Shown here: piece after piece, positions 10,922 through 14,646 of the stretch
Layout: each line of letters begins with the position of its first letter
How positions within the stretch are numbered: the stretch's first letter is position 1
Assembly: GCA_900617105.1 (NCBI GenBank)
Contig: UYFQ01000509.1
Span: forward strand, 62,001 to 126,000
Source: Hydrurus foetidus
Taxonomy: Eukaryota
Direction of reading: 5' to 3'
Length of the DNA stretch: 64,000 nucleotides
Position numbers and translations under genes: made by a program
The notes under the pieces: model-generated
The model's database searches: none
The model's input: the letters and a program-made list of their open reading frames with translations, nothing else
What the model was told of the DNA's origin: nothing

Positions 10922-13900
10922 TCATAAAAATCGTAACGTGCATTTTTTGTCAGTGAAGTTCTCAATTTGGAATTTAGTTTTCGGACTCGACTTAAACCCA
11001 TGCACCCTAGTGTGTAATAAAATAGAATCGAGATGACACGCTCTCAACGGTTTTGCCAACACACAATCAGCTCCTGCTTCGAGAAATATGTTGACATCAT
11101 CATTGAGCGCGTTGCCAGTCAGACCGAATATTAATCTGTCAAACCCACATTTTCTAATTGCTGTAGTGGCATCTCCTCCATTCTATAACGAAAATGAGAA
11201 CAAGGGGGCAAATACGTATCAAGAAAATCGTCAAAAAAAGTGGAAGAAGTAGAGCAAAAAAATAAATTGGACGATAAATAAGCATTGGTAGGATGATGGG
11301 AATTTAATGCAATTTCAGATTTTGAAGATTTAGATTATAGTAATAGATGGAAATAAAAAAAAAAAGCGTGGGAGGAATAGTGAATAAATGTACTGTATCA
11401 TTAGTTTTCACTTCGATTTCATCCTTGAACAAAAGATAATAGGAGAAATTCCTGTTACACGGAGACTAGCAGTCATACGTTCGTACGTACCATGATAGGC
11501 ATAGTGTAGTCCATGAAAATGAAGTCATAAGTGTTTCCTCGTTCTTGAATGAGTTTCAAAGCTTCCAGACCGTTCTCCGCAATATCGCAGGGAATGTTCC
11601 GTCCTCTCAGTAGCATGGACAATATCTTGTTGTTCGAAGGCGTGTCTGAGAAAAGGAGTCAGAGAGATGGTGGGATAATATTATCATTTTCATTTTGCCA
11701 GTTGGTAATATTTGGTGTAAAAAGAAGAAGAAGAAGAAGAAGAGGAGGGGTTGGAAGCAAGAAGAAAAGAAAAACGATGTAGTGATGTTAGATTCAAAAG
11801 GAATAGTATAAAATAGAAATAAAAAAGTTAAAAGCCATAAAAAATACTCATAGAAAAAAACGTTGGTAGATGCGAATAGCAGAAGAAAAAGGAAATTTTC
11901 GCCGCAAATGCAATACTATTACTGACAAAAAAAAAGTGAAATTACAGTACAAAACAGATTGAATTATTGTATGAAAAAAAAATTACGTATAAAGGACAAA
12001 AAGGGAAGAAGGAATAAAATGTGAAGACTCACCGTCCACGACTAAATATTTTCTGATAGGTGTAGTAGCGTCGATTGGTGACTCTAAGTCTTGAGAATTG
12101 TGCAATAATCGGTCAGATGTGTTGTTGACCATCTTTAATAGATCGGCTGTTCTTTGTTGTCCTGGAGTGGCGATATCGAATGATATTCGGAATCCAAAAG
12201 TGCTCCCCACTCCCAAGGTACTCTCAACTATAACATGACCGCCATGTAACTTTATGATTTCATTTGCTAATACAAGCCATAATCCGGTGCCTCTTCCTTG
12301 CTCCGAATAATCTGGCCGGATTTGGCTGTAAGGTCGCATAAGTCCGTTAAGATCTTCCCGTGAAATTCCCTCACCAACATCAACAACTCGCACTTCAACA
12401 TGACAGACTTGCGAAGTCACAGAAGATTTTCTCGCTGTGTGTATAGCACTGGGATTTTTAAGCGGATCCAATTTTGGTGAAAAATTAGCACCGATTTTGG
12501 ATTTTTTGATGTCGGATGCCCCACTTACTATTTCACCGAAATAAGGTGAATTATTAATTCCAGCAGTAGCAACCGATCCTTTTCGCGAAGTTAAGTTTGC
12601 CACAGTTTTTGTATTTGTCAGATTTGATTTGTATTCGCGATTGGGATTAAAATTTTCACTTCTTCTTTCACTTCTTCTTTCACTTCTTTTTTCATTTTTC
12701 TTTTCATTTTCCGTTTCATTTTTATTTTCATTTTGAGTTTGCATTATAACTTTTGAGGACATCACTGAACACTTTGGTTTTGAAATGATATTCAAAACTC
12801 GGTGTACTCTGCTGCTTGGAAAGGGAATATCAGAAAATTTCTTGGTCATTTTGATTTTGACAACTGAGAGTGGCGAAGAGAGCTTGACGGCATTATCTAA
12901 AAAACTCATCAAAACGTTTTGAATTCGCAATCTGTCACCTATCAGTAGTGGAGTTACTTCCTCTTTGAATTCGTCACATTCACTCACATCTAATTCGAGA
13001 TGTAAGTGTTTTTGCATGACACCTCCACTAACTGCTGTGATCGCGTCAGAAATCACATTTTCCATATGAAACGGTTTCTTGAATATCTCCATTGCACCTT
13101 CCTCAATTTCATGGACAAATAGCACGTCCGTTAGAGTCTTATTTATAAATGTTGTCGCGCCATTCATCATGCTCAGTGCCTCCTTCCACTCTTCTTTGTT
13201 GTCACCTCCATTATTGACACATGACATGAAAGAATATCAGAAAAAGGAAATGATGTAATATCAGGTATTGCTATCTCGGAACAATGCAACATTTACTAGC
13301 ATTGATTGGATCAATATTCATATTGATGTGCATGTATGAATTTTGTTACATTGTATACAATAGATGTAACCAATCAACATACTTCTCTAGCGTGACCCAG
13401 GGGTTCTTTGATTTGGGTATCAGCAAAACACACACAGATTATTTCTCACAATGGATACGTCATATAAAAGCATAGCTTTTTACTAATCAACTCTAATACA
13501 AGGTTAAGACCACCATTCAATGAAACAAAAACAGTACACACACAAATTTCGAGAAATATTGTGTGTGAAAGTATCTGCGTGTTGACGTTTTCTGCTGTCT
13601 ATTTGTCGGTTGATTAAAATAAATGAAGTACACATTAATACACGAGAGTTGATCTTACCTCCGGCCTCAATAATTGCCATGCCCATGGTAATCGTGTTCA
13701 GGGGTATTCTTAACTCGTGGAAAACATAGCGTAAGAAGGTTCGTCTTGTTTCGTTTACCATCGATTCCGCATCCCTTCTGCATCGGATGTGTTCGGTTAC
13801 ACTAATCTGCTCCTCTATCAAAGCCCCTACGAAAAGAAGTTTGGCTGCCACACTCAATAGTACGAATGCCACATTTAATTGATCACGGTCCAATTTCTCG

Positions 13901-14646
13901 TAGTATGCGAATAAATATACGATTGGAAATGCTGGGAATATTATGTATATCAGGCGAAGCAGTGAGACTTTCTTCGTAGCTGTAACCAAATCAGCGTCTT
14001 TCTTCTTCGCATTGTCGTTGCTATTAAGGCTCCCTCCTCCAATTTCAATGCTGCGGACAACTAAGTATGACACGACAAGTGCCACACAGCCGATCACGAA
14101 CAAGAACACTCCCACAGCTTGATTTTCAAAGCTGAAATTCATAACGGCGCCGCTAAAAACTGCTATAGAAAGACAAGCTATCACAATGTAGTCGTGTAGA
14201 GACAAACGAACTTTATCCTCAACAGCGACAGCGATGTAAGCCATGAGCGGAACACAAGTCACCCATTCACTCCATTGGGCAGCTGATGATTCTACGCCAA
14301 GAACATCTTTGCAAACTCCGCCGTGATCAATGGAATACGTAAGAAGTGATGAGGATCCAGCAATGACCCCGACGGTCATTCCAGCCATGTAATACACACC
14401 CTTTTCACAGCGCCCAGTAAAAAGCGATTGGCACCAACAACAGTACAGCTTATACGCTTGCTGAATTGTGGAAGTTACGAAGCTAAATCCTGCAGCAAAA
14501 TAGTAGTACTTTGTCCAAGTTGCGAAGGGAGTTCCATTGGAACATATGGACATGTAACCAGTCAACGCTTGTAGGATAATGTACGAAAGCAGCACTGACG
14601 CAAGGACATACACTCCTTGCCGACTAAGCAAAGATGTCCCCGGCAT
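10922..14646 (-). CDS. Histidine-kinase rhodopsin: microbial rhodopsin (8 TM) + HisKA + HATPase_c + receiver domain, about 858 aa
   Basis: Exons 14646-13659, 13205-12033, 11645-11491 and 11182-10922 total 2577 nt in frame. Rhodopsin motifs: helix C QWSEWVTCVPLM, helix F FPAFPIVY, helix G LSVAAKLLF (Lys at 13840-13842). Kinase motifs: H-box FLRYVFHELRIPLN, N-box LDNAVK, G1 DVGEGI, G2 GRGTGLWL. Receiver: YLVVDD..FIFMDYTMPIMNG..GLTGNA..LAKP. Confidence 0.88.

Follow-up and report, generated by a model that had tools for sequence, protein, structure and literature searches.

The closest described counterparts of the gene considered here are the green-algal histidine-kinase rhodopsins (HKRs) Cop5/HKR1, Cop6/2c-Cyclop1 and Ot-HKR, in which an eight-helix rhodopsin with the retinal lysine and no proton donor at position 96 (pocket positions are given in bacteriorhodopsin numbering) is joined to a HisKA-HATPase-receiver module. 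Three HKRs, all of them green-algal, had been characterised as of PMC8815786; statements on published work refer, here and below, to the consulted portions of the cited sources. Cop6/2c-Cyclop1 has eight transmembrane (TM) helices, and light inhibits its His-to-Asp relay, which needs the retinal lysine, the histidine, the G-box glycine and a dimer (PMC6284317). HKR2 is green-sensitive and has no carboxylate counterion, while HKR1 and NeoR are bistable enzyme rhodopsins (PMC8815786). In the 43 rows of a published table of HKR residues (PMC7693036 Table 2B), Ser212 is found in none, and every row with Asp or Glu at position 85 also has Asp212. Here we describe a gene of Hydrurus foetidus, located in a window of 64,000 nucleotides (contig UYFQ01000509.1, positions 62,001 to 126,000, assembly GCA_900617105.1), whose product is an HKR by the evidence of its sequence. 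It differs from the green-algal proteins in having no cyclase and belongs to a large family whose predicted retinal pocket usually retains a single carboxylate, in helix C.

The gene lies on the minus strand and consists of four exons encoding 858 amino acids, from an ATG at 14646, chosen by comparison with homologues, to a stop at 10922 (Table 1). Its three GT..AG introns emerge from RNA aligned to positions 10500-15500, the runs coming from close relatives or other strains that are mostly 95-99% or more alike. In the stranded library X8, 154 reads from about 6% of the run are confined to one strand of the gene; 2, 8 and 2 of these reads span introns 1, 2 and 3, respectively, and introns 1 and 3 are also bridged by contigs of the libraries X2 and X1. 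The gene is spliced and transcribed. Among related transcripts covering residues 106-282, 11 of 15 differences are silent as against 23% expected (p 5e-5), none of the 15 alters a pocket residue listed in the initial annotation of this locus, and one contig carries a silent change in the codon of the predicted retinal lysine, K269. HisKA, HATPase and receiver domains follow one another on a single polypeptide, in an order that recurs inside single open reading frames (ORFs) of relatives. The match to Response_reg (E 1.8e-4) is partial and under the curated cut-off, and the exon 4 piece by itself has no Pfam match. As the stop at 10922 directly follows the receiver, and a cyclase was found in none of 41 long relatives, the cyclase-bearing 2c-Cyclop class was rejected as a home for this protein.

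The membrane domain was modelled twice with AlphaFold, from 18 sequences (pLDDT 81.3) and from 52 (pLDDT 93.1), and both models show eight helices, a hairpin between TM2 and TM3, and matches to microbial rhodopsins. When the second model was compared with 48,161 representative chains, the best match was SrRhoPDE, the Salpingoeca rhodopsin phosphodiesterase (Z 23.1, root-mean-square deviation 3.2, 257 aligned residues, 12% identity), which also came out on top for the first model (Z 23.6). AR2 was second at Z 22.3, less than one Z unit below and hence a tie, but it aligned from residue 37 only, whereas the SrRhoPDE alignment begins at residue 5 and so takes in the additional N-terminal helix, TM0. 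With the second model, the heliorhodopsin TaHeR reached Z 18.8 and the top non-rhodopsin Z 10.3; no viral fold matched at E<=0.001, and the Atlas offered leads toward Bac_rhodopsin clusters, all with scores under 0.9. The models thus predict a microbial-rhodopsin fold with eight TM helices (type Ib), as in HKRs. A loop of five residues connects TM1 and TM2 in the model of the query. Cys112 in the TM2-TM3 hairpin is accompanied by a cysteine within residues 29-42 in 94 of 106 scorable members, and it is likely from this co-occurrence that Cys112 and the cysteine of the TM0-TM1 loop form an extracellular disulfide.

The query by itself is recognised as a rhodopsin neither by Pfam nor by a sequence search of the PDB, and the register of its pocket consequently needed a test of its own. 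Fold comparison yields aligned ranges rather than residue pairs, and the register was taken from alignments of a 52-sequence family profile (A2) with solved microbial rhodopsins. The profile matches Acetabularia rhodopsin II (3am6) best, at E 3.2e-7, and also Synechocystis halorhodopsin, a Rubrobacter rhodopsin, CryoR2 and others. Five of these alignments give one and the same register for the helices of the pocket: in helix C q-W-a-E-W-x-x-t-v-P lies over R-Y-x-D/T/E-W-x-x-T/S-T/V-P, in helix F f-p-l-F-p-i-v-Y over W-x-x-Y-P-x-V-W/Y, and in helix G s-v-l-a-K over D-x-x-x-K; they further place L159 at D115, A162 at M118 and G166 at G122. From a manual alignment, the initial annotation had read the pocket as R82Q, Y83W, D85E, T89C, T90V, D96I, W182F, Y185F, W189Y and D212S with K216 kept; all eleven assignments hold in the profile alignments, and in the translation of the joined exons E127 (14266-14268) and the other residues sit where it had placed them. 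The view that a single carboxylate counterion remains is borne out as well, since E127 is the only acidic residue of helix C and Ser occupies position 212; likewise the conserved Arg is replaced by Gln124, and Ile138 stands at position 96, which is acidic in 0 of 165 family sequences. Helix B is without any charged residue. An outward proton pump of the DTD/DTE kind was rejected: in place of acceptor, Thr and donor together with Arg82 and Asp212, the protein has E/C/I with Gln82 and Ser212.

To what extent this pocket typifies a family was assessed from its relatives. A first search found 18 relatives, about ten of them close (47-66% identity), and searches aimed at longer homologues gave 1 and 2 proteins only. 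With a profile of the 18, 815 clusters (50% identity) were retrieved at E up to 1e-3, of which 486 lie within 1e-10 and 139 within 1e-30; these counts include fragments and come from a profile containing a short part of the H-box region. The alignment used below has 166 sequences, namely the query, the 18 early relatives and 147 new ones from the best 150 profile matches, and counts at each position omit gapped sequences. K216 (135/139), W86 (160/161) and P91 (160/162) are nearly constant, and position 85 is acidic in 154 of 161 members (E 148, D 6, Q 5, A 2). The remaining positions are looser: Q 94, I 29, M 10, L 7, R 3, K 1 and others at 82 (n=156); C 51, S 41, T 37, A 15 and others at 89 (n=161); V 109, G 21, A 15 and others at 90 (n=161); F 68, L 39 and M 24 at the W182 site (n=153); and S 78, N 25, G 24, D 8 and T 4 at 212 (n=139). 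In the 134 members scorable for the counterions, Lys occurs with the helix C carboxylate only in 119, with both carboxylates in 7 and with neither in 4, Lys being absent from the other 4. The initial annotation had proposed a survey for a conserved Q/E/C/S pattern; such a signature does not stand, as positions 89 and 212 vary and the exact Q-E-C-S-K set occurs in only 11 of 129 members. On these alignments, the conserved family trait is instead the loss of the TM7 carboxylate.

A few members depart from this scheme. P0082 and P0095, a sister pair near the query, have exchanged Lys for Asn and the counterion Glu for Gln in what appears to be one event, and are likely retinal-free paralogues; the joint loss fits the two residues acting as a pair. 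P0101, P0111, P0159 and P0206 are the few that retain Arg or Lys at 82, and P0159 and P0206 also have Asp212. P0083, P0117, P0150, P0197, P0151 and P0092 form a clade with several members carrying Ala89 and Ala90. The relationships come from a midpoint-rooted FastTree tree of 147 of the 166 sequences.

Domain composition was examined in 41 long members selected from the profile match list. Pfam reports HisKA in 37, HATPase in 37, a receiver in 27, Bac_rhodopsin in 12 and RGS in 2; the Pfam heliorhodopsin family matches none of the 18 early relatives and none of the 41. With the rhodopsin domain at or above its cut-off in only 7 of the 41, routine annotation would overlook most of the family. 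The two RGS proteins, P0097 and P0106, are sisters assigned to Mallomonas marina by source label, and their RGS domain lies N-terminal to the rhodopsin (E 2e-9 and 3e-10); P0106 lacks the H-box His and the receiver. A literature search for an RGS-rhodopsin fusion found no paper.

In its counterions the query does not match the HKR1/Cop5 type, having E127/S265 where HKR1 has M113/D239 (PMC7693036 Table 2B). The distance between the retinal lysine and the H-box histidine is 54 residues in Cop6 (K298, H352; PMC6284317) as against 41 in the query and most scorable members of its family. SrRhoPDE and the rhodopsin guanylyl cyclases share TM0 and Glu85 with the query, SrRhoPDE being its best structural match, but they keep Asp212 (residues from PMC7693036), carry another enzyme and, for SrRhoPDE, show 12% identity. 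Heliorhodopsins have the same single-counterion pair as the query, Glu 3.45 and Ser 7.46, in an inverted seven-helix topology with a TM1-TM2 sheet and His in TM1 and TM2 (PMC13739731), whereas the query has eight helices, a TM2-TM3 hairpin, a kinase fusion and no His in the helices at 43-77 or 83-106. Heliorhodopsin membership is ruled out by the missing TM1/TM2 His, the position of the hairpin, the lack of a Pfam match and the structural scores (Z 18.8 vs 23.1), and the shared Glu/Ser pair is likely convergent. Raphidophyte HKR-like entries resemble the query in helix C: in clade A.5 of PMC8017926, five uncharacterised Heterosigma/Chattonella entries, read by eye from parts 7-9 of 250 of the dataset file and, among 166 labelled rows, from the first 18, have Gln82, Glu85, Val90 and Pro91, with Cys89 in four and a similar H-box. 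All five keep Asp212, which the query family has mostly lost. This combination of Gln82 with Asp212 suggests that Arg82 may have been lost first and that the loss of Asp212 may be the mark of the query family.

Taken together, these observations favour, with a rough probability of 68%, an eight-helix rhodopsin-fold domain joined to a hybrid histidine kinase; the protein likely carries retinal on Lys269 and would use light to switch a His-to-Asp phosphorelay while moving no ion. That the protein is a non-pumping sensor, as initially proposed, is well supported by its sequence: the rhodopsin is fused to HisKA, HATPase and receiver in one spliced transcript, 79 of the 107 scorable members share one Lys-to-His distance, 41 residues (it is 38, 39 or 42 in 20 more), the proton donor is missing and helix B is uncharged, all of which points to signalling rather than transport. 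Retinal would form a Schiff base with K269, for which E127 would be the only counterion; with Arg82 and Asp212 both gone, the site would be charge-neutral, comprising the Schiff base and one Glu, and a protonated dark state is on this ground likelier than a UV (ultraviolet) form. By analogy with single-Glu heliorhodopsins and with the green-sensitive HKR2, we somewhat favour a protonated, blue-green dark state, hold a UV dark state or a bistable pigment to be a tentative second, and leave what probability remains to a mixture or to no pigment. A small residue at the M118 position and the loss of W189 would tend toward a blue shift. As there is neither a proton donor nor a carboxylate in helix B, reprotonation would probably be slow and the signalling state long-lived. 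Isomerisation of retinal might be relayed through helix G and the helical linker of fixed length to the dimeric kinase core and alter phosphorylation of H310 and D766, the light inhibition of green-algal HKRs serving as the working model (PMC6284317). With no cyclase present, the output would pass to a separate phosphotransfer partner, and the Hydrurus copy itself, given its altered G2 box, might be a weak kinase or a regulatory partner.

Several points weigh against this account. For every member of the family, what is said of retinal binding, spectral properties, topology and light regulation is a prediction, and the RNA stems from other strains or close relatives and need not represent the sequenced individual. 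Within the family, the evidence linking a basic residue at 82 to an acidic one at 212 amounts to 2 of 4 sequences compared with 5 of 125, all of them related, and the five raphidophyte entries with Gln82 and Glu85 that keep Asp212 weaken the argument from charge balance; a strict coupling of the two losses was considered and lost ground on both counts. Cys89 is a weak hydrogen-bond donor, and Ala at the same site gives UV absorption in apusomonad rhodopsins (PMC12557545). On the kinase side, the query has Trp at the last Gly of the G2 box, where Gly stands in 61 of 75 long members (Ser in 7, Trp in 4), and Ser where 52 of 77 members have the first N-box Asn; its close relatives P0020 and P0080 have additional degenerate N or G1 boxes.

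The last of the chemical points leads to the notion of a UV-absorbing or UV/visible bistable sensor, in which the Schiff base is deprotonated either before illumination or once a stable photoproduct has formed, and residue 89 tunes each paralogue. Such a state is possible because the same position acts as a UV/visible switch in apusomonad rhodopsins, Ser or Ala toggling between the two with Ala giving UV (PMC12557545). Position 89 is, moreover, the variable site of an otherwise fixed helix C, and the clade with several Ala89 and Ala90 carriers holds the best UV candidates by this analogy; the bistability of HKR1 and NeoR (PMC8815786) and the missing donor of the query are in keeping with it. 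The apusomonad switch was, however, demonstrated in proteins with two Asp (PMC12557545). The initial annotation had likened the protein to Chlamydomonas HKR1, with its deprotonated UV-absorbing state, but this comparison falters on the opposite counterion arrangement of HKR1/Cop5, Met85/Asp212 (PMC7693036 Table 2B). In heliorhodopsins with a single Glu the Schiff base is protonated and absorption lies at 542 nm; the S112A exchange at the position-89 site of TaHeR produces merely a red shift of 12 nm (bioRxiv 2020.06.24.168591). On balance a UV or bistable pigment appears possible but rather unlikely. Loss of retinal altogether, leaving a rhodopsin-derived membrane sensor that governs the kinase through redox, ligand or mechanical input, would agree with the relaxed aromatic positions of the pocket (at the W182 site F 68, L 39 and M 24 of 153) and with the existence of such forms in the family, the pair P0082/P0095 having lost both Lys and Glu; as none of Lys, Glu, W86 and P91 is missing from the query, and 135 of 139 members have the Lys, this seems improbable. 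Still less credible, and close to negligible, is a light-driven pump or channel that carries a kinase. The top PDB sequence matches of a further profile, A1, are potassium channelrhodopsins, at a non-significant E of 0.65-2.7 and over helices F-G only, and xenorhodopsins and schizorhodopsins do pump with one counterion (PMC13739731), but the query has no donor at 96, no helix B carboxylate, no Cys90 and no Asp115, and combines the eight-helix fold of enzyme rhodopsins with a kinase.

A different kind of objection leaves the photoreceptor intact and concerns the kinase of this copy, which may be dead or weak, the protein then acting as a light-controlled phosphatase, a phosphate sink or a heterodimer partner of active paralogues. 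To judge from its sequence the kinase may be weak, because the ATP-binding box is altered. The G2 Trp and N-box Ser of the query fit this idea, as does the occurrence of the same Trp in P0020, P0073, P0077 and P0080. Some of these four also have degenerate N or G1 boxes, and all fall into the query subclade of the tree, which is a possible pseudokinase branch. In 2c-Cyclop, a G-box mutant was inactive, and so was a heterodimer with an H-box mutant (PMC6284317). The roughly ten close relatives at 47-66% identity, which are not tied to one genome, also bear on partners of this kind. On the other hand, H310, the second Asn of the N-box, the G1 motif Asp-x-Gly-x-Gly and D766 of the receiver are all retained. 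We regard an impaired kinase as an appreciable yet minority possibility, and it is compatible at the level of the family with the light-switched hybrid kinase that we prefer.

Table 1. Features of the rhodopsin-kinase gene, in positions of the 64,000-nucleotide window; residue numbers count from the ATG at 14646.
Feature	Position	Strand	Basis
Exon 1: predicted eight-helix domain with rhodopsin fold (residues 1-281), followed by linker helix and H-box	13659..14646	-	ORF, translation, homologue-inferred start, models
TM0 (residues 6-32), predicted extra N-terminal helix like that of type Ib enzyme rhodopsins	14551..14631	-	model helix; SrRhoPDE alignment starting at residue 5
Cys35 in the TM0-TM1 loop, probably disulfide-bonded to Cys112	14542..14544	-	family Cys co-occurrence
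Cys112, TM2-TM3 beta-hairpin	14311..14313	-	Cys in 128/134; model strands 111-113, 119-121
Helix C pocket: Q124 (R82), W125 (Y83), E127 (D85), W128 (W86), C131 (T89), V132 (T90), P133 (P91), I138 (D96)	14233..14277	-	family alignment, profile register
Q124; W125; E127; W128	14275-14277; 14272-14274; 14266-14268; 14263-14265	-	translation from ATG 14646
C131; I138 (S126 between W125 and E127)	14254-14256; 14233-14235	-	translation from ATG 14646
Helix F pocket: F237 (W182), F240 (Y185), P241 (P186), Y244 (W189)	13915..13938	-	profile alignments
S265, at the D212 (second counterion) position	13852..13854	-	profile register, family alignment
K269, predicted retinal-binding lysine (K216)	13840..13842	-	K in 135/139
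H310, H-box phospho-acceptor His, 41 residues past K269	13717..13719	-	Pfam, translation, family spacing
Intron 1, 453 nucleotides, GT..AG	13206..13658	-	joint in 2 X8 reads and 1 X2 contig
Exon 2: remainder of HisKA, HATPase_c with low-complexity insert, receiver start	12033..13205	-	HATPase_c E 1.7e-15, splice joints
G2 box, Trp639 (12277-12279) replacing the last Gly	12274..12297	-	family alignment
Intron 2, GT..AG	11646..12032	-	joint in 8 X8 reads
Exon 3: receiver, including Asp766 (11509-11511) as phospho-acceptor	11491..11645	-	Response_reg E 1.8e-4, motif position
Intron 3, GT..AG	11183..11490	-	joint in 2 X8 reads and 1 X1 contig
Exon 4: receiver end and stop, no cyclase after	10922..11182	-	joined-exon translation

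Some features of the locus stand apart from the photoreceptor question. The joint of intron 1 can slide because its acceptor side (13206-13212), which ends in GAG, duplicates six letters of the donor side, the frame being the same either way. At about 12660-12740 the HATPase domain contains a charged low-complexity insert in which reads of related strains lose their match, and the region upstream of the gene, at about 15080-15500, shows RNA from either strand together with a contig of 1.3 kb that is divergent, which may reflect a repeat or a separate small transcript. Freshwater RNA runs, whose word shares are small, cover the gene piecewise and are not used here for any claim on habitat or abundance. 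The gene is present in a single copy within the window. Its neighbours there encode a protein kinase (64-2805), an MFS transporter (7050-8336), an ADA2-type ZZ finger (23600-23872), ribosomal protein S4e (24543-25340), a Na/Ca exchanger (30466-31131), an NHL-repeat protein (32627-33202) and a protein with a beta-trefoil lectin domain (36149-37000), with no evident link to the rhodopsin gene.

The family is likely centred on chrysophytes, because its named members are mostly chrysophytes. Organism names are carried by three of 20 clusters looked up, two from Mallomonas annulata and one from M. marina, and by none of ten others; the query and the M. annulata protein P0111 share 29% identity. Two more members are found in Dataset S3A of PMC8017926 (2021), within its raphidophyte/chlorarachniophyte HKR-like clade A.5, placed among enzyme rhodopsins without comment. 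One, from Ochromonadaceae sp. CCMP2298, agrees with P0131 across the stretches of helices C and G, and the other bears the label Gymnodinium catenatum; the sequences as given there contain no H-box. The single dinoflagellate label may be genuine or may reflect prey. In clades A.5 and A.6 of the same dataset, pelagophytes, dictyochophytes, haptophytes and dinoflagellates contribute many uncharacterised entries that resemble rhodopsin-kinase or rhodopsin-PAS proteins and have an odd helix C, such as His or Met at position 85. Pattern scans of viral, prokaryote and metagenome contigs revealed no relative, but they also missed known metagenomic relatives and are weak evidence of absence.

Neither chrysophyte HKRs nor an HKR with the helix C counterion only was found described in the literature searched, which leaves most subscription journals and the HKR1 paper outside its coverage. 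The consulted portions of two reviews (PMC12558739, PMC6324907) make no mention of either, and the word rhodopsin is absent from a recent chrysophyte genomics preprint. PMC13739731 reports an uncharacterised 'cluster 5' without the conserved 7.46 counterion, and this cluster, or an HKR cluster of the same work, may be the query family. HKRs as such are already known; what is new is a large branch that combines this counterion arrangement, absent from one published HKR residue table (PMC7693036 Table 2B), with the lack of a cyclase, and its interest lies in the family more than in the present copy. As a speculation that we consider doubtful, chrysophytes might have expanded an undescribed enzyme-rhodopsin family to hundreds of light-controlled hybrid kinases with an Arg-free single-Glu site that arose independently of heliorhodopsins, residue 89 (Cys, Ser, Thr or Ala) setting UV or visible absorption to yield a multi-colour two-component array, and some members being linked to G-protein control by an N-terminal RGS domain. 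The natural variation of the family at positions 82, 89 and 212 amounts to a set of ready-made mutants for probing protonation of the Schiff base, and the family supplies candidate photoreceptors of chrysophytes as well as candidate compact light-controlled kinases for optogenetics.

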